Part shown: positions 6,179-61,092 of the stretch, one piece after another
Layout: the number at the start of each line of letters is the position of its first letter
Numbering within the stretch: the stretch's first letter is position 1
Origin: a bacterium
Lineage (GTDB): Bacteria > Hinthialibacterota > Hinthialibacteria > Hinthialibacterales > Hinthialibacteraceae
Direction of reading: 5' to 3'
Length of the DNA: 64,000 bases
Assembly: GCA_963662285.2 (NCBI GenBank)
Contig: CAXXMV010000001.1
Location: 832,001 to 896,000 of the forward strand
Program-made: the position numbers and the translations under genes
Notes under the pieces: generated by a model
Told to the model about the DNA's origin: nothing
The model's input: only the letters and a program-made list of their open reading frames with translations
Database searches by the model: none

Positions 6179-7489
6179 ATGAAAAAGAAAACTAATCGCA
6201 GAAATTTCATTAAAACCGCATCGGCGTTATCGGCCTCAACTTTTATAATTCCCGCCAGCGTGTTGGGTATGGGAAAACAGGCCTCCGCCAATGACCGCAT
6301 CAATGTGGGATGCATCGGGGTTGGTCCGCGTGGGACGGATGGTCTCCGTGGTTTGTTAAAAAATAAAACCTGTCAGGTTACAACGCTATGCGACCTGAAA
6401 AGCAATGTGCTTGAAGAGAAGAAGAACCTTGTCAACGAGTTCTATGAAAATAAAGATTGCCAGACTTATCACGACTTTAACCAGTTAGTCGCCCGTAAGG
6501 ATATCGATGCCTGTCTGGTCGCTACCTGCGACCATTGGCATGTTCTAACCTCGCTGGCGGCGGTTCGTTCTGGCAAAGATGTTTATATGGAAAAACCGAT
6601 GGGGCTGACCCTCGAAGAGGATCAGGTCATGCGCGAGGCAGTTCATAAGCATAAACGGATTTTCCAATTCGGAACCCAGCAGCGTTCAGACGCCAAGTTC
6701 CGCCAGGCATGTGAATTGGTGCGCAATGGCAAGATAGGCGAGCTTAAGTCAATCAATGTTTGGTCGCCGGGTAGTATAGAGGGAGGCGAGTCAACCCAGG
6801 TACCAGCCCCGGAATGGCTTGATTATAATTTCTGGCTGGGACCATCAAAATTCACGCCTTACACAATAGACCGCTGCTCTAACAGCCTGTGGTGGTTTAT
6901 ATCCGATTATGCGCTTGGTTTCATCGCCGGCTGGGGCATCCATCCGATTGATATAGCCCTATGGGGCGCCGAAGATAAATTCGATGGTCCCTGGGAAGTA
7001 GAAGGTACCGGAACATTCCCGACCACCGGCGTTTGCGACACTGCTATGAACTGGAATGTGAAAATAAAGTTAGGCAGCGGAGTAAAGATTAATTTCACCG
7101 GCACGCCCTGCCCTGCTGAATGGTTAAAACGCTATGATGATATGGAAAGCAGTCATGGAACAGCGTTTGAAGGCAGCGAAGGCTGGATTTATGTTAAACG
7201 CGGTGTGATTAAAGCCAGTTCAGAAAGCATATTGAAAGCCAAAATCGATCAGCCATTATACAAGAGCGATAACCATGTCGACAATTTCCTCGATTGCATC
7301 CGCAGCCGCAAAGAAGCCGTCAGTTCGATTGATGCTGCGGTACGCGGTGATACGCTATGTCATATCAGTGATATTGCTATCCGGCGGGAAGAAAAGATGG
7401 TCTTTGATCCCAAGACTGAAAAATTTATCGATAACAATGAAGCCAATAAACGCTTGATGCGCCCCATGCGCGCGCCTTGGCATTTGTAA
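6179..7489 (+). CDS. Tat-exported Gfo/Idh/MocA oxidoreductase
   Basis: NRRNFIK Tat motif, IGVGPRG, DVYMEKP, GTQQRS, WGIHPID. Confidence 0.85.
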   Translation: MKKKTNRRNFIKTASALSASTFIIPASVLGMGKQASANDRINVGCIGVGPRGTDGLRGLLKNKTCQVTTLCDLKSNVLEEKKNLVNEFYENKDCQTYHDFNQLVARKDIDACLVATCDHWHVLTSLAAVRSGKDVYMEKPMGLTLEEDQVMREAVHKHKRIFQFGTQQRSDAKFRQACELVRNGKIGELKSINVWSPGSIEGGESTQVPAPEWLDYNFWLGPSKFTPYTIDRCSNSLWWFISDYALGFIAGWGIHPIDIALWGAEDKFDGPWEVEGTGTFPTTGVCDTAMNWNVKIKLGSGVKINFTGTPCPAEWLKRYDDMESSHGTAFEGSEGWIYVKRGVIKASSESILKAKIDQPLYKSDNHVDNFLDCIRSRKEAVSSIDAAVRGDTLCHISDIAIRREEKMVFDPKTEKFIDNNEANKRLMRPMRAPWHL

Positions 7490-7518
7490 TATTACAGAAT
7501 AGTTATTTCTTATTCATA

Positions 7519-7562
7519 TTGGCCATACCCCAAGCAGTTGCTGGAGCATGGCCAATTTTTTT
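7519..7562. terminator. Hairpin between convergent genes, probable intrinsic terminator
   Basis: ttggccat...atggccaa inverted repeat followed by a T-tract. Confidence 0.55.
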
Positions 7563-7579
7563 GCTCTTTTGATAATTCT

Positions 7580-8491
7580 TTATTTCCAAACAGGTACGCC
7601 TGCGTTTTTCAGTTTGACCATATATAGTCCACGACGGGCGGTAATGAATAGCGTCTGGTTATCCCGGTCGCCGAAGCCGCAATTGGAGGGATTTTCTGGA
7701 ACTATTATTGTTGTAATAAACTTTCCCGATGGACTAAATATTGCTACGCCAGTGCTTGAGGTCGAATACAGGTTGCCAGCCAGATCAACTTTGATGCCAT
7801 CCGGATGAGGCACTTCGGTAAAAACCTTGCCATTTGATAAGTTCCCATCTTTAGCGACGTCAAAGACCCGTACATTTGAATCTGCTGAATCAGCAATATA
7901 TAGCAGTTTCTCATCCGGTGAGAGAGCGATGCCGTTGGGTTTATTGAAATCCTTAATCAGCAAGACAGGTTCTTCTCCAGGCATTACCCGATAGACGCCG
8001 TTAAATGGAATATCGCGTTGCGCTTTATCTGTCAAACCATAATCAGGATCAGTGAAGAAGATCATCCCATCAGAACGAATAGCGCAATCGTTGGGGCTGT
8101 TAAAACGCTTGCCCTCCCATTTATCAGCAATGGAGACGACAGAACCATCCACTTTAGTGATAGAGACGCGGCGGTTTCCATGTTCACAAGCGACCAGATT
8201 ACCTTTTTTGTCAAATGTCAAACCGTTGGAGTTGCCGCAATCGCTGCTCCAGATTTCCGCGCCATTTTTAGCGCTCCATTTATAAATCTTGTTGGGAGGG
8301 ATATCGCTGAACAGCAGATAACCGTCTTTATGCCACACAGGACCTTCGGTAAAATCGAAACCAGCGGCGATCTGCTCTACATCTGAGACGATGATGGAAT
8401 CGGTTTCTGATGCAAATGTCGAGAAAGTGGTTAATCCAAAAAAGATCGAACATACAAGTAGTAATCCAAAATTTCTTCGTGCATTGAACAT
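7580..8491 (-). CDS. SMP-30/gluconolactonase/LRE family beta-propeller, exported
   Basis: Signal peptide; FTEGPVW, SNGL, NSPND, PNGI, PDGI motifs. Confidence 0.9.
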   Translation of the reverse strand: MFNARRNFGLLLVCSIFFGLTTFSTFASETDSIIVSDVEQIAAGFDFTEGPVWHKDGYLLFSDIPPNKIYKWSAKNGAEIWSSDCGNSNGLTFDKKGNLVACEHGNRRVSITKVDGSVVSIADKWEGKRFNSPNDCAIRSDGMIFFTDPDYGLTDKAQRDIPFNGVYRVMPGEEPVLLIKDFNKPNGIALSPDEKLLYIADSADSNVRVFDVAKDGNLSNGKVFTEVPHPDGIKVDLAGNLYSTSSTGVAIFSPSGKFITTIIVPENPSNCGFGDRDNQTLFITARRGLYMVKLKNAGVPVWK

Positions 8492-53051: not shown

Positions 53052-54326
53052 GTGGCTACTGAAAGCACAACACTGACTCGTTCACCATATCAAATACTTA
53101 AGATTTCACGCTGGTCAGATGTGGAAGAAATTAAAGCAAAATACTTCCAACTAGTGAAACAATTCAATCCTGAATATTTCCCTGATGAGTTTATAGAAAT
53201 TCGTACGGCTTATGATATATTAAAAGATGCAAATACTCGTGCGGCAACCGATGTGGAACTAATGGTAACGCCGCCAGCTTTCCATTGCCCGGATTTCCCT
53301 GACTTCCCAAAACAGATTTTATCCCTTTTCAAGTTAAATCAAGAATTAAAAACGCTCTGCGGAGACCGATCGCTTGAAAGCCTAACCGGGCAGGACCGTG
53401 AACAGGCCACCCATCTTTTGCGCGGAATCGGGCTTTATCACAGCTCTCACGATCAGATGGAAGAAGCCGTTCAATCCTGGGAGCAAGCCATTGCTCTTGA
53501 CGCCGATGATCAGTCATCTCTTCAAAACATTTATTTCGCCCGTTGGGCGGAAGGATGCAAAGCGGCTAATGAAGAACAATATGAAGCCGCCGAAAAATGT
53601 TTTACCGAGATTATCGAAAAAGGGGTGCAGCACGGCGCATTATATCAAAACCTTGCGCTTGCTCAGGAGAAACAAGGTAAAAAAGAAGAATCAGCCGAAT
53701 CCTGGAGTAAAGTTCTTGAATTCTACAATAAAGAACTTAAAGTAGACCCGGAAAACGATTACCTCAAACATTTCGTTATTGCAATTCATAAATATACCGG
53801 AGGAAAATTCATGGAAAGCGGACAAAATGTCTCAGTCGGCAATTCAGGATCTTCCAAAGAACTGGGATACGCCTGCATCCAAAAGGGCAACTGGAAACAA
53901 GCAGTTGACGCCTTCGAACGCGCCCTGAACGAAAACGAAGATGATGTAGATATTCTTTGCCAACTTGGCTGGGCTTATCTCAACACCAATGCTCATAACA
54001 AAGCGTTCCACATGTGGAATAGCGCCATGAAGAAAGCGCCGGGGAAACGGTCAATAGTTGATCATCTCGTGCGCGGCTATTCGGTGTTTGGCAAAAGACT
54101 CAAAGAACAGCGCATCTTCAATCAAGCTCTGGTTCAATTTAAAATAGCACTTAAGCATGAACCAAATAACCTTGAAATTAGACTTCTTTTGGCTGATACA
54201 TATTTCCAGATGAGAAATTTCACATCTTCGTTGCTAGAATACCAGAAAGTAATTGATATAGAGCCAAGAAACAAAGTTGCTCGTCAGGGTCTTAGAGAAG
54301 CTAAACGGCTTGGAGGGCTTCGATAA
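53052..54326 (+). CDS. J-like domain (HPD replaced by NPE) + multiple TPR repeats
   Basis: PYQILKI..EEIKAKYFQLVKQFNPE..FIEIRTAYDILKD..R J-domain signature; many TPR helices. Confidence 0.85.
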   Translation: MATESTTLTRSPYQILKISRWSDVEEIKAKYFQLVKQFNPEYFPDEFIEIRTAYDILKDANTRAATDVELMVTPPAFHCPDFPDFPKQILSLFKLNQELKTLCGDRSLESLTGQDREQATHLLRGIGLYHSSHDQMEEAVQSWEQAIALDADDQSSLQNIYFARWAEGCKAANEEQYEAAEKCFTEIIEKGVQHGALYQNLALAQEKQGKKEESAESWSKVLEFYNKELKVDPENDYLKHFVIAIHKYTGGKFMESGQNVSVGNSGSSKELGYACIQKGNWKQAVDAFERALNENEDDVDILCQLGWAYLNTNAHNKAFHMWNSAMKKAPGKRSIVDHLVRGYSVFGKRLKEQRIFNQALVQFKIALKHEPNNLEIRLLLADTYFQMRNFTSSLLEYQKVIDIEPRNKVARQGLREAKRLGGLR

Positions 54327-54853
54327 TGGGGTGGTTCCAAGGATCAATTGATCCCAAAGAGGCCTTTCCCATAGAAAACCTTCCCCTTGAGACAATGGGA
54401 AACCAAAAGGGTGATGCTCTTGCTTTACTATATAATCAACCTAAAGAGAATAATAATTCAGTTGGCAGACTTCCCGCTCCAATAAATATTGACAGACCGA
54501 AAGAAGATTTTTTCCGTAGAATTCTGCCAATTTTAGACGGTTTTGATAATATATTCCGCTATGCGGATCGAGCTAATCTTGAGGGTGATGATACTCTTTC
54601 AAATTGGTTGAAAACTCTTGAGACTTTATATAGAAGACTCTTATCTACTCTAGAAAAAGAAGGTCTTGTTGCGATAGAATCAAAAGGATTGCCGGTGGAT
54701 TTCTCGATACACGAAGTGATCGATACGCGTGAAGATCCAAATGTTTCAGATAACACTATTATCGAAGAGATGGTTAAAGGTTATAAGTTTGGCAGGAGAG
54801 TTTTAAGAGACGCAAAGGTTATTGTCGCCAAAAAAATCATACCGGGAAAATAA
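54326..54853 (+). CDS. grpE: GrpE-like nucleotide exchange factor (short form)
   Basis: LPILDGFD, LEKEGL..I..KG..D..HE, IIEEMVKGY..RVLRDAKVIV; TAATG overlap with the upstream gene. Confidence 0.85.
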   Translation: MGWFQGSIDPKEAFPIENLPLETMGNQKGDALALLYNQPKENNNSVGRLPAPINIDRPKEDFFRRILPILDGFDNIFRYADRANLEGDDTLSNWLKTLETLYRRLLSTLEKEGLVAIESKGLPVDFSIHEVIDTREDPNVSDNTIIEEMVKGYKFGRRVLRDAKVIVAKKIIPGK

Positions 54854-55006
54854 TCCGGTGAATTTATAGTATATTATTCAATAGTATTTCTTAGTATTGA
54901 TTAAAGATATTAATGCAGCTGGAGAAAACCAGCGACAAAAATTTAATTTTAAGATAATATATGATATCCGATGTATATAAAAAAGCATCGGGGGAGCAGG
55001 TATTTC

Positions 55007-56761
55007 ATGGCACGTATTTTGGGCATTGATCTTGGAACAACCAATTCAGTTGTTGCGATTATGCAAGGGGATTCACCAAGCATTATCCCCAATGATGTAG
55101 GAGACCGCATAACACCCTCCATCGTCTATTTTCAGGATAATGGATCTCTTTTAGTCGGGAAAAAAGCCCGTCGCGCTGCTGGTCTAAATCCGGAAAGATC
55201 CGTCTTTTCCATTAAAAGACACATGGGCACAGCGTTTAGAGTAGAAGTAGACGGTCAAAAACACACTCCTCAAGAAATCTCCGCCGCTATCTTGCAAAAG
55301 ATGAAAGTCGACGCCGAAAATTATTTAGGCGAAGAATGCACTCAAGCCGTCATTACGGTTCCTGCTTATTTTACCGATGCTCAACGCCAGGCGACTCGTG
55401 ACGCTGGTCAGATTGCCGGATTCCATGTTCGCCGCATCATCGACGAACCTACGGCTGCTGCAATTTCTTATGGTCTTGAAAAAGAACAAGATCAAGTCCT
55501 TATGGTCTATGACCTTGGCGGTGGAACCTTCGACGTTTCCATCATCGAGATGGTGGAAAGCGTATTTCAGGTTCTTTCCATCAAGGGTAACAACCACTTG
55601 GGCGGTGACGATTTCGACCAGAGGATCGTTGAATATCTGATTAAGCGATTCAAGGAAAAAGAAGGCATTGATCTATCCAATGACACCAAAGCGCTCTTCC
55701 GGCTCAGAGAAGCGGCTCAAGAAGCTAAAATTGAACTTTCTGGAGTAACCAATACGCAAATTATTATTGATGCGATTGCAATGACCTCCAGTGGTCCTTT
55801 GACTTTAGATGAAGAACTCACCCGCGCAAATTTCGAGAGTTTAGTACACGATCTCTTGGAAATGACTATCGAACCAACTCGGCAAGCCATTAAAGACGCT
55901 GGATTAACTCCTGAAGATATTTCTAATGTACTTCTGGTTGGTGGCAGCACGCGCATCCCGGCGGTTCAACAGTTAGTCGCCAAAATCGTTTCCAAAGAGC
56001 CTCGAAAAGACGTCAATCCTGATGAATGCGTCGCCTTGGGCGCTGCGGTTCAAGCCTCTATCCTGGCGCCGCTGGATGATGAATTGGAAATGACCTCTGC
56101 TGACCAGATCAGCAAAGACGGTCCGGTTATCGTCCACTTGACGCCTTTCTCACTTGGCGTAGGGTTATCTGACGACCGTTATGGGGTTCTAATTGAGAGA
56201 AACTCCACTTATCCGACTGAAGCGCGTGATATGTTCACCACTACCCGTGATTTCCAGTCCGCCATCAGCTTCCCGATTTACGAAGGTGAAGAGATGATCG
56301 CTTCTCAAAACACATTTCTGGATATGCTGCGCATCGACGATATTCCACCGGCGCCGCGCGGCGTGCCTAGGATTGAAGTCACCTTCCGTCTGAATCAAGA
56401 CCGTATTCTTGAAGCAACCGCCAAAGATTTAACCACTAACAGAGAAATCAGCATTACCGTTCTTTCTACCGATAACCGGTTGACTGAAGAGCAAGTTGGC
56501 GATCTACGTATAAAAGCCCATGAACGCGTTAATGTTATGGTTGATAAACGTAAAGAAGATGAGATGGCCAACGAAGTGGACAGCCTCGTGTTTCGCGCCA
56601 GACGACTCTTCACCGACCAGGAAGATCCTCTGGCAGAAGAGGCCATGCAGATTATAAGAGAATTGGAAAATGCGCGTAATGAATCCAATGAAGAGTCTGT
56701 ACAAGAGAAATTCGGTCAACTCTCTGAAATGCTGGCTAAATACGATTCAGACGACTATTGA
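55007..56761 (+). CDS. Hsp70/DnaK paralog (non-canonical)
   Basis: GIDLGTTNS, TVPAYF, EPTAAA, YDLGGGTFD, GGSTRIP, PAPRGVPRIEVTF; atypical linker and short lid. Confidence 0.93.
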   Translation: MARILGIDLGTTNSVVAIMQGDSPSIIPNDVGDRITPSIVYFQDNGSLLVGKKARRAAGLNPERSVFSIKRHMGTAFRVEVDGQKHTPQEISAAILQKMKVDAENYLGEECTQAVITVPAYFTDAQRQATRDAGQIAGFHVRRIIDEPTAAAISYGLEKEQDQVLMVYDLGGGTFDVSIIEMVESVFQVLSIKGNNHLGGDDFDQRIVEYLIKRFKEKEGIDLSNDTKALFRLREAAQEAKIELSGVTNTQIIIDAIAMTSSGPLTLDEELTRANFESLVHDLLEMTIEPTRQAIKDAGLTPEDISNVLLVGGSTRIPAVQQLVAKIVSKEPRKDVNPDECVALGAAVQASILAPLDDELEMTSADQISKDGPVIVHLTPFSLGVGLSDDRYGVLIERNSTYPTEARDMFTTTRDFQSAISFPIYEGEEMIASQNTFLDMLRIDDIPPAPRGVPRIEVTFRLNQDRILEATAKDLTTNREISITVLSTDNRLTEEQVGDLRIKAHERVNVMVDKRKEDEMANEVDSLVFRARRLFTDQEDPLAEEAMQIIRELENARNESNEESVQEKFGQLSEMLAKYDSDDY

Positions 56762-56802: not shown

Positions 56803-56831
56803 ATGAGACGGCTAATCAGCCGTCTCATTTC
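56803..56831 (+). terminator. Hairpin terminator after hsp70
   Basis: atgagacggct-aatc-agccgtctcat, perfect 11-bp stem, weak T-tract. Confidence 0.7.
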
Positions 56832-57038: not shown

Positions 57039-58631
57039 ATGGATACCCTCCAGTGTCCTGCATGTGGAACCATAAACTCCGGACAAGCGTTAGTTTGCCA
57101 GGAGTGCAATGAAGACCTCAATACAATCAAAAACGTTCTCGATACAGCTAAACAGCATTACAACGAGGCGCTTGCCTTAGCGCAGAGTAATAGATTGGAT
57201 GAAGCTATCGGCCAGATAGAAGCGGCGTTAGCCATAACATCACATGATCCGAACTATCATCTCCTTCTGGGAACTCTGAATGCTCAAAAAGAGAACTATG
57301 ATGGCGCCATCATGGCATGGGAACGCTGCCTGTCTATAAATCCCGATATTGAAAAAGCTTACCACAACATCGAGAAAGCCCATCAAATGCACGAGGAGGA
57401 AGAATACGAGCAACGCAAGCGCCCTTTCCTGCTCGGCGCCATAGGCGCAGGCGTTGCGGCTGTTATATTCCTCTTTTCCACCGGATTCTTAGCTGGACAG
57501 CTCTATTTCAAGAATAGAGAAATCACTCAACTTACGTCAATCCTGGAAACAAAAAACAATGAGACCAATGACTGGCGTCAAAAATTTATCACCCTTAGTG
57601 AGAATTTCCCCAAAGAAGGTCTACAAGGGCTTCTAGCCCAAGTTTCACAATGGAAAACGCTGGCGGAACAACGTCAAATAACCATTGAACAAACTGAAGC
57701 ACGCTATAAAACCAGCATTGATCAACGTAATCAGGAAATTCAATCTCGACAGCAAAAAATCCAGGAATTAGAAAGTCAGATTGCCAATCTGCGCAAATCG
57801 ATAACTCAAATCAATCCATTAAGACACTCTCTCGTGGTCAAAAGCAAGGATATTGAAAAAAAAGATACTGTTATAAATGCGCAAAATGCCAAACTACTGG
57901 AAAACAAGAATCAAATCAGTCTGCTATCACAACAATTAGCAGCAGCGCAGCAACAAATCGATGCGAATAAAGCCAGTCATCAGGATGCTCTGACCCAAAC
58001 GCAATCCAACGCTGGTAAAGAGATCGAAAACCTGCGTATAGAGATACAAAAACTGCTCGACCAAATTGCCGAGAAAGATCGTGAATTGACCGACTTGGAA
58101 TATGCCGATAATTTAGTCGTAGAAGCGATTCAGAAATTTGAAGACAATAAATTCACCGAATCTTCATCTCTGGTTCAAAATGCTCTGGAACGGAGAAAAG
58201 ATCACGCTCCTTCTCTTTATATCCAAAAAAATCTTCAAACAATTCTTTCTAATCCAGTAGAAGAGGAAGTCTATCGACAGATTGCAGCAAACCGACCATC
58301 AATGCGTACTCAAATTCGTACAGAATTAGCCAACCGGAAAATAAACCAGGCCATGAACTATCTTGGCCAAGGAGAATTCGATAACGCTATTAAAACCGCT
58401 CAGACCACCTTGGCTTTTCTCTCTGCTGATTCAAACGAAGCAAAACAATGCAACCAGCTAATTCAAAAAGCCGAAAAAGATGAAGCGGATATAACCCGTC
58501 AACTTTCTGAAGCGCGTATCTACATTGACGACAAAAATTTCAGAAAAGCCAAAACGCTACTGAAAGATATAATTAAGCGGTCGCCGTCTTTCACCGAAGC
58601 AAGCGTTCTTTTAGGCCAGATTGATCAATAA
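57039..58631 (+). CDS. Zn-ribbon + TPR + TM + long coiled coil + TPR protein (paralog of 30288-31880)
   Basis: CPAC..CQEC; HYNEALALA..LDEAIGQ..LLGT.AQK..AWERCL..NIEKA; TM; coiled coil; YADNLVVEA. Confidence 0.82.
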   Translation: MDTLQCPACGTINSGQALVCQECNEDLNTIKNVLDTAKQHYNEALALAQSNRLDEAIGQIEAALAITSHDPNYHLLLGTLNAQKENYDGAIMAWERCLSINPDIEKAYHNIEKAHQMHEEEEYEQRKRPFLLGAIGAGVAAVIFLFSTGFLAGQLYFKNREITQLTSILETKNNETNDWRQKFITLSENFPKEGLQGLLAQVSQWKTLAEQRQITIEQTEARYKTSIDQRNQEIQSRQQKIQELESQIANLRKSITQINPLRHSLVVKSKDIEKKDTVINAQNAKLLENKNQISLLSQQLAAAQQQIDANKASHQDALTQTQSNAGKEIENLRIEIQKLLDQIAEKDRELTDLEYADNLVVEAIQKFEDNKFTESSSLVQNALERRKDHAPSLYIQKNLQTILSNPVEEEVYRQIAANRPSMRTQIRTELANRKINQAMNYLGQGEFDNAIKTAQTTLAFLSADSNEAKQCNQLIQKAEKDEADITRQLSEARIYIDDKNFRKAKTLLKDIIKRSPSFTEASVLLGQIDQ

Positions 58632-58645
58632 ACACACAGTAAACT

Positions 58646-58689
58646 AGTTGGTGAAATGCTTGGGATCACCCGGCATTTCACCAACTTTT
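58646..58689 (+). terminator. Long hairpin after the TPR gene
   Basis: agttggtgaaatgc...gcatttcaccaact followed by ttt. Confidence 0.7.
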
Positions 58690-58927
58690 ATGTTGTAAAT
58701 CCAGCAAATAAATCCATTTAACATAAATGCCATCAGGTTAATAAACTATCAGTTAATTGGCGCCCTCTCTTAGTTTTTCTCATTCATCCATTTTTATGCA
58801 GTTCCAGATTGGATAATTCATCCGTTTTGCGTTACCATTATAGTAATTGATATGAGGATGTCTTTATTTTCTAAATTACATAATTTCAGAAACCGCTATA
58901 GCGGAAATTTAACAACGGATTCATCGT

Positions 58928-59695
58928 ATGTATTCAGATCAGATCAAATTATTGCTTGAGCAGGTTCGTGGAAATAGCATCTCCATTGAAGACGCTATGA
59001 CTGCTCTCAAACACCTGCCCTATGAAAGTTTAGGATTCGCCACAATTGATCACCACCGCTCATTGCGGCAGGGAGTACCTGAAGTAATATTCTGTCAAAA
59101 CAAGACGCTTGAAGAGATTACTGAAATTATTCATTGTCTACAAAACAAGAATCAGCCTGTACTGGCAACCAGAGCAACGCAGGAAACCTTTGAAGCATTA
59201 AAAGATATTTTCCCTGATGGTGAATTTTATGAACGATCCCGCGTAATCACCATCGGAGGTGATCATGCGCCTACTCCAGTTGGAAATGTTTTAATCGCCT
59301 GCGCCGGGACTTCTGATCTGCCGGTTGCTGAAGAAGCCGCTGTCACTGCTCAGTTCACCGGATCGAACGTGACCCGGTTAACCGATGTCGGCGTAGCAGG
59401 CATCCATCGTTTATTGGGTCGCCTGGATATTATCCACCAGGCCAATGCTATTGTGGTGGTTGCAGGTATGGAAGGCGCTTTAGCCAGCGTTATTGGAGGT
59501 TTAGCCGAGGCGCCTGTTATCGCCACGCCCACCAGTGTGGGATATGGCGCCAGTTTCGGCGGCATTGCTGCTCTTCTATCAATGCTGAACAGTTGCAGCG
59601 CAGGCGTTACGGTAGTTAATATAGATAATGGTTTTGGAGCCGGATTCGCGGCCAGTTTGATCAATAAACGCATCTGCCAAGCCAAAACGGAGTAA
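58928..59695 (+). CDS. larB: Nickel-pincer cofactor biosynthesis carboxylase LarB (PurE-like)
   Basis: DHHRSLRQGVPEV, AGTSDLPVAEEA, DVGVAGIHR, AGMEGAL, PTSVGYG, VVNIDNGFGA. Confidence 0.92.
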   Translation: MYSDQIKLLLEQVRGNSISIEDAMTALKHLPYESLGFATIDHHRSLRQGVPEVIFCQNKTLEEITEIIHCLQNKNQPVLATRATQETFEALKDIFPDGEFYERSRVITIGGDHAPTPVGNVLIACAGTSDLPVAEEAAVTAQFTGSNVTRLTDVGVAGIHRLLGRLDIIHQANAIVVVAGMEGALASVIGGLAEAPVIATPTSVGYGASFGGIAALLSMLNSCSAGVTVVNIDNGFGAGFAASLINKRICQAKTE

Positions 59696-59700
59696 TCAGG

Positions 59701-61092
59701 ATGATAGATTCTTTTTCCCAACTCAATCCATTCAGGCGAAGTTATGCCCTCCTGCTTAAATGTTGTATTCTGCTAATCATTTCTTTGTCCACGCTTACGC
59801 TTTATGCTGATATAGTCACGCTTAAAGACGGCGCCACTTTGCGCTGTCAGGTGATCCGGGAGACCCAGTCGCCTGCCACAGGTGAACGCTATATCGAAAT
59901 CCGCATCGCCCAATCGATTATTTGGATTAACCGGGATGCAGTGGATCGGATCGACTCCACTCCGCCGCCTCAATCCACCAGCCTTGAAATGCAACAATTG
60001 ATAAAACGTTTGACTGCGGAAGGCATATTGGTTCCTTCAGTTCAAAAACAACTAGATTTTGACCAGAAGATAGTTCCAGAACCAGAAAAAGAGCAGAAAA
60101 TCCCCATAACTATCACAGACCTGCGCGGTTGGGCTTATATCTACCAAAACGAAAAGGCCATGAATGATGGACAGCGCATACTAGTGGCCATTGGTGATAC
60201 ATTGCCGCTTGGTTATATCCTTTCGCTTTCTCCTAATACCCGTATGACAATGAACTTAAAAGATGTGGGAGACATTGGGCTGGAAGCGGGAGCAGAAATT
60301 CGCTTTGATGAGATGACCAAAAACTCTTCAATGCTAAAATACACAATAGCGCTGCGACTGGAAAAAGGGCGCTGCTGGTTTGATATTAAATCAACCGAAA
60401 ATGTCATCCTCCGCACCAATTCAGTTCGCTGCATAATCCAGGAAGCTGTATTCTTTACCAATACTACAGATAAACCCGGCGCAATAGATATTACATACCT
60501 AAGAGGGAAAGACAGTCTCCGCTTTTCCAGAAACAGATTATCCGAAGAACCATCTATGGTTGATGTCGGGCAGATTCTGAAAGTTGATCCGGCGTCAAAT
60601 AAACTCCCTGTAGAAGCGGCATCCAACATTTCCGATCTGGAAGAGACAATAAAAACTTGGAAGGATTGGCAGCCTGAAAAATTGGATATTGCCATCGAAC
60701 AGGTTATTCCGCCATTAATGACCTTCCCTTCATTCCGGGCGCTGCCAGCGTTGCATCCTTACAAATTGAATATTGATCAAAGTTTAATGCTGCCGCCCGA
60801 AACCCGCAGTTTGGGTGAGATTCTCAACGTCTACAAAAAAGCGCTGCAACAATACCGAATCGACACTGGCGCTTATCCAACTTTTGATCAGGGTTTGGAC
60901 GCATTATTTCAAAGTAATGATAAAGCCGGATGGAAGGGTCCATACGTTTCGTTGGCTCTGCCGCGGCGTGATTCATGGGGTGAACCTTTCTTATATGATA
61001 TTTACACTGAAAAAGGGCGTACTTACGTAGATATCCGCAGCAAAGGACCCAACCGCAAAGATGATAAAGGATTGGGAGATGATTTCCGTTAG
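59701..61092 (+). CDS. Exported protein: N-terminal beta domain + FecR-like domain + C-terminal GspG-like domain
   Basis: Signal/TM then ADIVTLKDG; FecR-like ALRLEKGRCW..RTNSV; ALQQYRIDTGAYPT.DQGLDAL..WKGPY..DSWGEPFLY..SKGP..GDD. Confidence 0.7.
   Translation: MIDSFSQLNPFRRSYALLLKCCILLIISLSTLTLYADIVTLKDGATLRCQVIRETQSPATGERYIEIRIAQSIIWINRDAVDRIDSTPPPQSTSLEMQQLIKRLTAEGILVPSVQKQLDFDQKIVPEPEKEQKIPITITDLRGWAYIYQNEKAMNDGQRILVAIGDTLPLGYILSLSPNTRMTMNLKDVGDIGLEAGAEIRFDEMTKNSSMLKYTIALRLEKGRCWFDIKSTENVILRTNSVRCIIQEAVFFTNTTDKPGAIDITYLRGKDSLRFSRNRLSEEPSMVDVGQILKVDPASNKLPVEAASNISDLEETIKTWKDWQPEKLDIAIEQVIPPLMTFPSFRALPALHPYKLNIDQSLMLPPETRSLGEILNVYKKALQQYRIDTGAYPTFDQGLDALFQSNDKAGWKGPYVSLALPRRDSWGEPFLYDIYTEKGRTYVDIRSKGPNRKDDKGLGDDFR

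Follow-up and report, generated by a model that had tools for sequence, protein, structure and literature searches.

The question raised by this locus is what a single-pass membrane protein with tetratricopeptide repeats (TPRs) does beside a specialised Hsp70. The stretch of DNA analysed here, which we call the window, is 64,000 nucleotides long and corresponds to positions 832,001 to 896,000 of contig CAXXMV010000001.1 (assembly GCA_963662285.2) from a bacterium of the phylum Hinthialibacterota. Downstream of an hsp70 gene it encodes a protein with an N-terminal zinc ribbon and TPRs, hereafter ZnTPR. A preliminary description of the window regarded this protein as a trans-envelope scaffold that docks the Hsp70 at the membrane, possibly by clamping its acidic tail, or as a protein that needs the Hsp70 for its own assembly. 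Our evidence is entirely comparative and comes from two phyla and from metagenome contigs. Judging from gene neighbourhoods, ZnTPR is likely to be functionally linked to the Hsp70 system. More specifically, we consider it fairly probable that ZnTPR tethers an alternative nucleotide-exchange factor to the membrane or regulates it there; this factor would be the GrpE-like protein encoded upstream of hsp70, to which ZnTPR would bind.

Linkage of ZnTPR to a GrpE-like protein in two phyla

Independent evidence for this link comes from Chloroflexota. A genome scan identified two Anaerolineae contigs (G001, G002) on which a 188-residue zinc-ribbon-TPR protein is encoded 3' of a GrpE-family gene of about 190 codons (Pfam GrpE scores of 50.9 and 51.3 bits). 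On these contigs and in a third genome (G318), the GrpE-like gene ends 7-13 bp ahead of the ZnTPR gene. In a profile search, the N-terminal domain of ZnTPR (N-domain) is found in 3 of 401 Chloroflexota genomes (G001, G318 and G031), and full-length matches to the GrpE-like profile (153-205 bits) are found in exactly those three and in none of the 398 others. All other matches to the GrpE-like profile in the 401 genomes score at most 84 bits and leave the N-terminal part uncovered. Note that one of the 401 (G042) is flagged as unpublished; it contributes a canonical-level match only.

A scan of metagenome contigs gives 20 loci, which are pooled with the genome loci into 14 clusters at 90% identity. 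Removing one fragment of the window's own type and one cluster at a contig start leaves 12 testable Chloroflexota-type lineages, whose ZnTPR proteins have a median pairwise identity of 43%. The GrpE-like gene is directly upstream of the ZnTPR gene in 11 of these 12 lineages, with a gap of -3 to 46 bp; the remaining lineage has the order GrpE-like, Hsp70, ZnTPR, with the genes overlapping. Since the three Anaerolineae (G001, G002, G318) each have a single Hsp70, which is a canonical DnaK, the invariant partner of ZnTPR is the GrpE-like protein. Co-occurrence and adjacency, with or without a dedicated Hsp70, thus make the GrpE-like protein, and not the Hsp70 tail, the best-supported partner.

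The third carrier among the Chloroflexota genomes, G031, has a larger operon, which encodes a 798-residue TPR protein, a weak J-like protein (Pfam DnaJ, 22.8 bits, below the cut-off), the GrpE-like protein, an Hsp70 and a ZnTPR in which the transmembrane (TM) helix is followed by LysM. The start of this last gene overlaps the hsp70 stop by 4 bases. The operon Hsp70 (L046, G031:C123, 3694-6240) carries a double-zinc-ribbon insert after its nucleotide-binding domain (Pfam DZR, 33 bits). The gene that follows (7379-8341) encodes a protein with LIM and DA1-like peptidase domains.

The GrpE-like proteins can be separated from ordinary GrpE. The protein of the window belongs to the GrpE family by Pfam, and its best NCBIfam equivalog score is 60.5 bits vs 137, below every cut-off. 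In a tree, the GrpE-like proteins of both phyla lie on one side of a branch and the canonical GrpEs of the same genomes lie apart (support 92/87), and the split amounts to one change in 98% of 200 bootstrap trees. By sequence, the GrpE-like proteins of the two phyla are one distinct subfamily. Their N-terminal motif is F-P-I-E/D-N-L-P in the window's phylum (F-P-I-E-N-L-P in the window itself, within 54326-54400) and F/Y-P-V-P-P-x-A in Chloroflexota, with one invariant proline column. Canonical GrpE matches leave the region of this motif uncovered.

In the window's own phylum, 19 full-length ZnTPR homologues are found at E <= 3e-75. They are nearly all 526-536 residues long and come from metagenome-assembled genomes only; the records are labelled Candidatus Omnitrophota or just 'bacterium', and one partial homologue is labelled Candidatus Hinthialibacter sp., a genus placed in Candidatus Hinthialibacterota. 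The N-domain profile matches 34 of the 35 species genomes of the phylum (4-8 Mb in size). We designate the families of this phylum f1 to f6; the source genome of the window (G000) belongs to f1. Linkage was counted by comparing the contigs and coordinates of N-domain and GrpE-like matches across these genomes.

At most loci of the phylum, the genes form the block J-like-TPR / GrpE-like / Hsp70 / ZnTPR / LarB / GspG-like. In family f1 (20 genomes, including the source genome), the GrpE-like gene lies at most 3.1 kb upstream of the ZnTPR gene on the same strand in 14 genomes, with only hsp70 between the two at the loci retrieved; the others comprise two genomes with insertions (4.2 and 7.8 kb), one with the gene inverted and 7 kb off (G421), one in which the genes are unlinked (G424) and two in which they lie at contig ends. 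The GrpE-like gene is also linked to the ZnTPR gene in both f2 genomes, in one of the four f3 genomes (the three unlinked ones belong to genus g22) and in the single f4 genome, where the gap between hsp70 and the ZnTPR gene is about 17-23 bp. The single f5 genome has hsp70 directly upstream of the ZnTPR gene, and beyond hsp70 the contig ends. The seven f6 genomes have a weaker TPR-TM relative by LarB and canonical-level GrpE matches only, and no Hsp70 is found nearby at the single f6 locus retrieved (G436). The retrieved loci confirm the order J-like-TPR / GrpE-like / Hsp70 / ZnTPR in f2, f3 and f4, and Hsp70 / ZnTPR in f5. Synteny with this Hsp70 subfamily, which the preliminary description had seen in one genome, thus recurs from f1 to f5, and linkage to the GrpE-like gene extends to Chloroflexota. 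Judging from this distribution, the chaperone/ZnTPR block is old within the phylum.

Searches of larger protein collections are dominated by TPRs in general. The N-domain profile has 287,624 matches at E <= 0.001 among 1.84 billion representative proteins, mostly giant multi-TPR proteins, and only the forms of about 530 residues and two shorter ones (250 and 286 residues) are recognisable among them. A word-indexed protein search with the N-domain gives about 19 clusters of small forms; the longer proteins found are mostly TPR noise, with one LysM-bearing form. A 104-residue hypothetical protein of Kitasatospora (Actinomycetota; P0188) also matches the N-domain profile (E = 2.4e-16), which hints that the family may reach a third phylum.

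Domain architecture of ZnTPR

ZnTPR is predicted to begin with a cytoplasmic zinc ribbon and TPR domain, to cross the membrane by a single TM helix and to continue in the periplasm as a coiled coil that ends in a TPR-like domain. The coordinates of these parts and of the neighbouring features are collected in Table 1.

Table 1. Features of the ZnTPR locus and of the in-window paralog (window coordinates; scores in bits, given with the model's cut-off after vs)
Feature	Coordinates	Strand	Description and evidence
ZnTPR paralog, 530 aa	30288..31880	+	33% identity, same architecture; BLASTP 2e-93
J-like domain + TPR protein, 424 aa	53052..54326	+	Pfam DnaJ 37.7 vs 27.8, plus TPRs
GrpE-like protein, 175 aa	54326..54853	+	Pfam GrpE 83.5 vs 25.8, profile positions 60-165 of 165
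Hsp70 paralog, 596 aa, ends KYDSDDY	54971..56761	+	Pfam HSP70; own-genome search; tree
Hairpin between hsp70 and ZnTPR	56803..56828	+	11-bp perfect stem, weak T-tail
ZnTPR gene	57039..58631	+	530 aa bitopic membrane protein, ATG start; open reading frame, Pfam, hydrophobicity, AlphaFold2 model, homologues
Zn ribbon, residues 1-27	57039..57119	+	C6, C9, C20, C23; CxxC-x10-CxxC
Two TPR motifs + capping helix, residues 28-129	57120..57425	+	Pfam, invariant columns, register vs consensus TPR
TM helix, residues ~130-152	57426..57494	+	Kyte-Doolittle scan; R-K-R just before
Long heptad-repeat helix, residues 199-368	57633..58142	+	Single AlphaFold2 helix; predicted periplasmic coiled coil
C-terminal helical-hairpin (TPR-like) domain, residues 372-529	58152..58625	+	AlphaFold2 hairpins, pLDDT 81-92
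Strong hairpin just past ZnTPR stop	58639..58691	+	-31 kcal/mol, z = -6.55
LarB	58928..59695	+	NCBIfam LarB 292 vs 175
463-aa protein, GspG-like C-terminal domain	59701..61092	+	Pfam T2SSG; NCBIfam GspG model below cut-off; signal-like N-terminus

Every element that had been recognised from the sequence alone is present in ZnTPR; the cysteines of the putative N-terminal ribbon are conserved, and the N-terminal TPRs are supported by Pfam. Among 17 aligned homologues, C6 and C9 never vary, and C20 and C23 are retained in 90% or more. Models of zinc ribbons score below the Pfam cut-off (DZR_2, 19.1 bits vs 27; Zn_ribbon_3, 17.6 vs 27), and the AlphaFold2 model has short strands at residues 3-5 and 12-14 of the putative ribbon, which is missing from the ZnTPR of families f2, f3 and f6. 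Residues 37-103 exceed the cut-offs of TPR_16 (47.1 bits vs 32.7), TPR_2 (45.0 vs 27) and TPR_1 (33.5 vs 27.8), and these scores together with the fitting AlphaFold2 helices place ZnTPR among the TPR-repeat proteins. The best-conserved part is the N-terminal 125 residues, and the coiled coil is poorly conserved in sequence. The TPR core, with the motif H-Y-N-E/Q-A-L, is common to the window's ZnTPR and the Chloroflexota proteins. In a Foldseek search of the PDB, the top match is a designed TPR (TM-score to target 0.93), and Hip, SGT and CTPR390, which are Hsp70/Hsp90-binding TPRs, appear among many generic TPR matches. Searches against the PDB with Foldseek, against the sequences of solved structures and against the ESM Atlas return generic TPR matches only.

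The AlphaFold2 model was built on 17 homologues and has a mean predicted local distance difference test (pLDDT) score of 82.4. It consists of strands within residues 3-14, TPR helices at 28-100, a helix at 105-187, a break at 188-198 that surrounds a conserved F-P..G motif, a helix at 199-368 and hairpins at 372-529. The helix at 105-187 is the TPR capping helix, which continues unbroken into the TM segment. The single TM helix of the preliminary description is confirmed by the hydrophobicity scan, in which only one hydrophobic segment appears (residues ~129-152; Kyte-Doolittle 19-residue mean reaching 2.19). Likewise, the long coiled coil corresponds to one predicted helix with a heptad periodicity of 0.50, compared with 0.226 +/- 0.036 in shuffled sequences (0 of 300 shuffles reach 0.50); by arithmetic, this helix would be about 25 nm long if straight. 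The distal TPRs are less certain: the helical hairpins are present in the model, but TPR_6 at residues 492-516 scores 23.2 bits, under its cut-off of 26.3, and only the in-window paralog passes a TPR model (TPR_19 at its residues 498-525, 28.9 bits vs 25).

The membrane anchor is family-wide, and what lies beyond it is not. TPRs followed by a TM helix are present in the ZnTPR of all phylum representatives examined. Of 29 small Chloroflexota-type proteins, 24 end in a conserved hydrophobic helix, counted as such if the best 19-residue Kyte-Doolittle mean is 1.45 or more, and almost nothing lies beyond it. The ZnTPR of G318 has a long low-complexity linker before its C-terminal TM helix, and in f4 the periplasmic part shrinks to about 90 residues. 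What the family has in common is a small membrane-anchored TPR domain, presumably on the cytoplasmic side, whereas the extracytoplasmic part is lineage-specific. The idea of a trans-envelope scaffold is therefore plausible for the window's lineage, given its long helix, but does not extend to the family, in which that part may be short, replaced by LysM (G031) or nearly absent.

Proposed role and ligand of the TPR groove

In the role that we favour, the N-domain, made of an optional zinc ribbon, two TPRs and a capping helix, would present a peptide-binding groove on the cytoplasmic surface of the membrane, where it would dock or regulate the dedicated GrpE-like exchange factor. The most likely ligand of the groove would be the N-terminal F-P-[I/V/L] motif of the GrpE-like protein. 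Through this factor, the groove would act on Hsp70, that is, on the upstream paralog here and on the housekeeping DnaK in lineages without a paralog, and the exchange of ADP for ATP, hence the release of clients, could be localised or gated at the membrane. The coiled coil and TPR-like domain, as a lineage addition, could position the module at envelope sites or report the state of the envelope.

The composition of the groove is compatible with such a ligand. The TPR register was taken from an alignment to the consensus TPR of solved structures, and we take the groove-lining positions to be Y41, N42, L45, L76, T79, K106, N110 and K113. In the 17-sequence alignment of the phylum, Y41, N42, L45, L76, N110 and K113 show no variation, T79 is retained in 90% or more, and K106 falls into neither class. 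The resulting groove would be hydrophobic, with two asparagines and basic edges, and it seems to suit an extended hydrophobic or proline-rich peptide somewhat better than an EEVD-type ligand, although the argument is a soft one. Prediction of a complex between the GrpE-like protein and the N-domain gave scores of 0.24 and 0.19 vs a mark of 0.32, which count neither for nor against binding.

Several observations weigh against a tether or regulator of the GrpE-like factor. Most of the Chloroflexota lineages are probably related Anaerolineae, so that the independent events are few (G031, the Anaerolineae group and the window's phylum). Within the window's phylum, about 15 genes are collinear around the locus, including those for an ABC transporter, a deacetylase, an HD hydrolase and a flavin reductase; since the flanks are collinear too, synteny within the phylum is not independent evidence. 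Adjacency is lost in three of the four f3 genomes and in G424 and is inverted in G421, and the in-window paralog lies near no Hsp70. LarB stays by ZnTPR where Hsp70 does not (L021-L023, f6); its linkage is at least as persistent as that of Hsp70. The ZnTPR gene of the window has its own 278-bp upstream region and hairpins on both flanks. The small forms have basic residues past the C-terminal helix, which is a poor fit to a simple positive-inside reading of the topology. Finally, the J-like-TPR protein is an equally possible reader of any docking motif.

The alternative that survives best is the one first suggested for this locus, an EEVD-type clamp in which the N-terminal TPR binds the acidic tail of Hsp70 and thereby docks the specialised Hsp70 at the membrane. 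As a passage in one published account states, the EEVD motif of Hsp70 binds TPR co-chaperones (PMC8913300). The acidic tail itself is real and conserved. All 19 Hsp70 paralogs of the f1 type (that of the window, those of 17 loci between L001 and L018, and L050) end in Y-E/D-T/S-x-D-Y/F, and L065 and the f2 and f3 representatives end in E-T/M-A-D-Y; the motif Y/M/L-E/D-x-x-D-Y/F describes the Hsp70 tail throughout f1-f3 (including L069, L070 and L072; 56741-56761 in the window). This conserved extreme C-terminus recalls the eukaryotic EEVD and suggests a docking motif, the ZnTPR gene directly follows hsp70 in most genomes of the phylum, and Hip, SGT and CTPR390 are among the structural matches, alongside the many generic ones. 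However, the motif is absent in f4 (where Hsp70 ends in TQMER), in f5 and in the operon Hsp70 of G031, where the TPR domain is nevertheless retained along with its invariant residues, and the three Anaerolineae that carry the GrpE-like/ZnTPR pair encode no Hsp70 besides the canonical DnaK. In addition, ZnTPR has two TPRs and a capping helix that runs into the TM segment, in place of the three-TPR groove of EEVD-clamp domains. The carboxylate-clamp positions (K, N, N, K and R in helices A1-A3) would map to Y41, L45, L76, K106 and N110, so that one of the five fits K/N/N/K/R; this is a soft test. The upstream J-like-TPR protein, which has many TPRs, is an equal or better candidate for reading the tail, and the tail of f1-f3 may be read by this protein instead. 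We therefore regard the clamp as unlikely. What stands of the original docking proposal is the functional link to the specialised Hsp70 system, seen in the block of f1-f5 and in the linkage to GrpE-like genes in Chloroflexota; the tail clamp is not supported.

A second possibility is that ZnTPR is a client, that is, a single-pass or tail-anchored protein that needs the GrpE-like protein and Hsp70 for its insertion or assembly. The small Chloroflexota forms do look tail-anchored, and such proteins are inserted post-translationally; the long coiled coil of the window's ZnTPR may need assisted assembly; and the gene follows chaperone genes. On the other hand, the best-conserved part is the folded TPR groove with its invariant surface residues, not the TM or exported part, and it would be unusual for one small client to have an exchange factor of its own. 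Clients are generally not known to stay next to chaperone genes from one phylum to another, which also counts against this explanation. We judge it to be quite improbable.

ZnTPR could also have no tie to Hsp70 and serve as a structural or spacer protein of the envelope, with a loose likeness to CpoB or TolA, its position after hsp70 being inherited gene order. Much of the evidence within the phylum would agree with this: the collinearity of the region, the putative transcription unit of its own, the paralog by nusA, the linkage to LarB that outlasts the linkage to Hsp70 in f6 and genus g22, and a coiled coil that is approximately as long as the periplasm is wide. Such a protein cannot explain Chloroflexota, however, where the GrpE-like protein is found in 3 of 3 carriers and in 0 of 398 other genomes, where 11 of 12 lineages have it adjacent, and where small forms without a periplasmic domain occur; moreover, the periplasmic part is the least conserved region. 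This explanation, too, has little chance of being correct.

A variant closer to the tether or regulator is a switch in which ZnTPR holds the GrpE-like factor back at the membrane, much as anti-sigma factors do with sigma factors, and lets it go once the periplasmic domain senses a change in the envelope. The architecture required is the same, and the variable extracytoplasmic domains (coiled coil and TPR-like domain here, LysM in G031) could bind a ligand or the wall. The N-terminal zinc ribbon recalls zinc-binding anti-sigma factors, which we take as a resemblance only. Against this switch, the small Chloroflexota forms have next to nothing outside the cytoplasm with which to sense, the CxxC...CxxC ribbon lacks H-x3-C-x2-C and is dispensable in f2, f3 and f6, and the conserved neighbours include neither a sigma factor nor a protease. 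We consider it very unlikely.

Two further candidates were rejected. A zinc-binding anti-sigma factor proper is not supported, since the H-x3-C-x2-C motif of that class is absent and the neighbours are hsp70 and larB, with no sigma factor; and the GTPase-centred Hsp70/GrpE conflict system, as described in a part of PMC7159879, does not fit, since there is no GTPase among the annotated genes around the module. In PADLOC-DB, a library of models for anti-phage defence proteins, no family matches ZnTPR, the J-like-TPR protein, the GrpE-like protein or the Chloroflexota pair, and Hsp70 has one weak match (E = 1.1e-4).

Genomic surroundings, related systems and implications

The chaperone genes upstream of ZnTPR are additional to the housekeeping set. 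The source genome (7.29 Mb, 8 contigs) has a canonical dnaK and a canonical grpE side by side on contig 8, so that the Hsp70 and the GrpE-like protein of the window are paralogs. In the tree, the Hsp70 paralogs of the phylum form a clade (99/99) apart from the canonical DnaKs (96/95); the operon Hsp70 of G031 is on a very long branch, and we do not assign it to this Hsp70 subfamily. The J-like-TPR protein of the window carries N-P-E, and the f2, f3 and f4 representatives carry S-P-E; we take N-P-E to sit at the H-P-D position of J domains. The chaperone module may thus lack a canonical ATPase-stimulating J domain.

As first described, the ZnTPR gene lies downstream of hsp70 with a hairpin between them. 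The intergenic distance is 278 bp, and the hairpin has a centroid energy of -18.3 kcal/mol (z = -4.4), with 0 of 200 shuffles as stable; it is not among the terminators listed by the terminator scan. Promoter-like sites occur at chance level (13 found vs 13.1 expected). From the upstream region of its own and the flanking hairpins, the ZnTPR gene of the window is probably its own transcription unit, transcribed separately from hsp70.

Downstream, LarB and the protein with a GspG-like domain are a pair that is kept across the phylum, even where the link to Hsp70 is missing (L021-L023, L073). LarB acts in the synthesis of the nickel-pincer cofactor; no LarC or LarE was seen near it. The in-window paralog of ZnTPR is encoded directly upstream of nusA-infB-rbfA-truB-pnp, with no adjoining Hsp70, and a second copy of ZnTPR is also found in some relatives, e.g. 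L013 and L020.

Outside the window, at approximately 209,400-213,700 of contig 1 of the source genome, there are weak Hsp70-like (72 and 40 bits) and GrpE-like (21 bits) matches; this cluster (L028, L031, L087) may be a further atypical Hsp70 system. In the related genome G405, the canonical dnaK match (G405:C1:528705-530483, L092) contains four in-frame TGA codons, and a second Hsp70 match contains two TGA and one TAG.

Several known systems resemble the proposed module in part. Tom70, Toc64 and Sec72 are eukaryotic membrane receptors that dock Hsp70/Hsp90 by TPRs. Like them, ZnTPR would have its TPRs at the cytosolic face of the membrane, with a single TM helix and a link to Hsp70, which in f1-f3 has an acidic C-terminal motif. 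Unlike them, it is bacterial, has two TPRs and a cap instead of three or more, does not have K/N/N/K/R at the putative clamp positions, and has as its conserved gene partner the GrpE-like protein and not the Hsp70 tail. Foldseek and the search of solved-structure sequences reveal no relationship between them and ZnTPR beyond generic TPR. Yeast Snl1 is a membrane-anchored nucleotide-exchange factor with a BAG domain, and Tim44, mitochondrial Hsp70 and Mge1 form the mitochondrial import motor. The logic proposed here similarly places Hsp70 nucleotide exchange at the membrane and, as with Mge1, involves a GrpE-family factor. However, tether (TPR-TM) and exchange factor (GrpE-like) are separate polypeptides in our case, there is no homology to BAG or Tim44, and no translocon gene is linked.

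Among bacterial proteins, LapB (YciM) is a cytoplasmic TPR protein that is anchored in the inner membrane, carries a zinc site of the rubredoxin type and has FtsH and LpxC as partners. It shares with ZnTPR the TM anchor, the cytoplasmic TPRs and a Cys4 module at the inner membrane face, but the order is reversed, the TM helix of LapB being N-terminal and its zinc site C-terminal, and its partner is not GrpE. ZnTPR has no match to NCBIfam LapB at E <= 0.001, and the J-like-TPR neighbour scores 26.7 bits vs a cut-off of 474. DjlA, and DjlC with HscC, are examples of membrane-anchored bacterial J-proteins. These are also single-pass co-chaperones that bring a bacterial Hsp70 to the membrane, but ZnTPR has no J domain, and the J-like domain of the module has no H-P-D.

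A dedicated chaperone set is also reported for Myxococcus xanthus. In the portion of a preprint that we consulted, the set consists of SglK (a DnaK homolog), GrpS (a GrpE homolog) and SgmC (a J-domain protein), and the SglK paralog, co-transcribed with GrpS, functions in exopolysaccharide production and motility by type IV pili (bioRxiv 10.64898/2026.08.28.747804). In both cases a bacterium with a large genome has a dedicated DnaK paralog and its own GrpE homolog, and according to this portion the role of SglK is envelope-related; the phylum is different, and the same portion mentions no membrane TPR partner.

Searches with NCBIfam, Foldseek and solved structures show no homology of the module to these systems beyond the generic TPR, GrpE and Hsp70 folds. 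The main text of the paper on Candidatus Hinthialibacterota (PMC9324843) does not mention DnaK, Hsp70, chaperone, tetratricopeptide, GrpE or pseudopilin. Literature searches on Hsp70/GrpE/TPR operons, on membrane-anchored DnaK partners and on Hinthialibacter found no description of this module.

If binding between ZnTPR and the GrpE-like protein fails, the finding reduces to an uncharacterised phylum-wide envelope protein. As proposed, ZnTPR would be a membrane-tethered Hsp70 co-chaperone. Bacterial Hsp70 biology is largely that of DnaK-DnaJ-GrpE in the cytosol, and Hsp70 cycles directed to the membrane are little understood beyond a few membrane J-proteins. A conserved and compact pair of an alternative GrpE and a membrane TPR protein, with or without a dedicated Hsp70, makes this question directly testable, and both parts, a domain of 125 residues and a protein of some 175, are small and expressible. 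The analysis further delimits a subfamily of GrpE that is marked by its N-terminal motif, and a clade of Hsp70 paralogs with an EEVD-like conserved C-terminus. The window's phylum is known only from metagenomes. More tentatively, and with rather less confidence than in the tether or regulator itself, we suggest that these genes may encode a previously undescribed two-part device, present in at least two phyla, in which a membrane mini-TPR receptor and a GrpE-like protein with an F-P-x docking peptide bring either DnaK or an Hsp70 paralog to the inner surface of the cytoplasmic membrane and set off the release of clients at that site. It would be a prokaryotic counterpart of the logic of Tom70, Sec72 and Tim44-Mge1, and in the window's phylum the periplasm-spanning coiled coil would couple the chaperone to the envelope.

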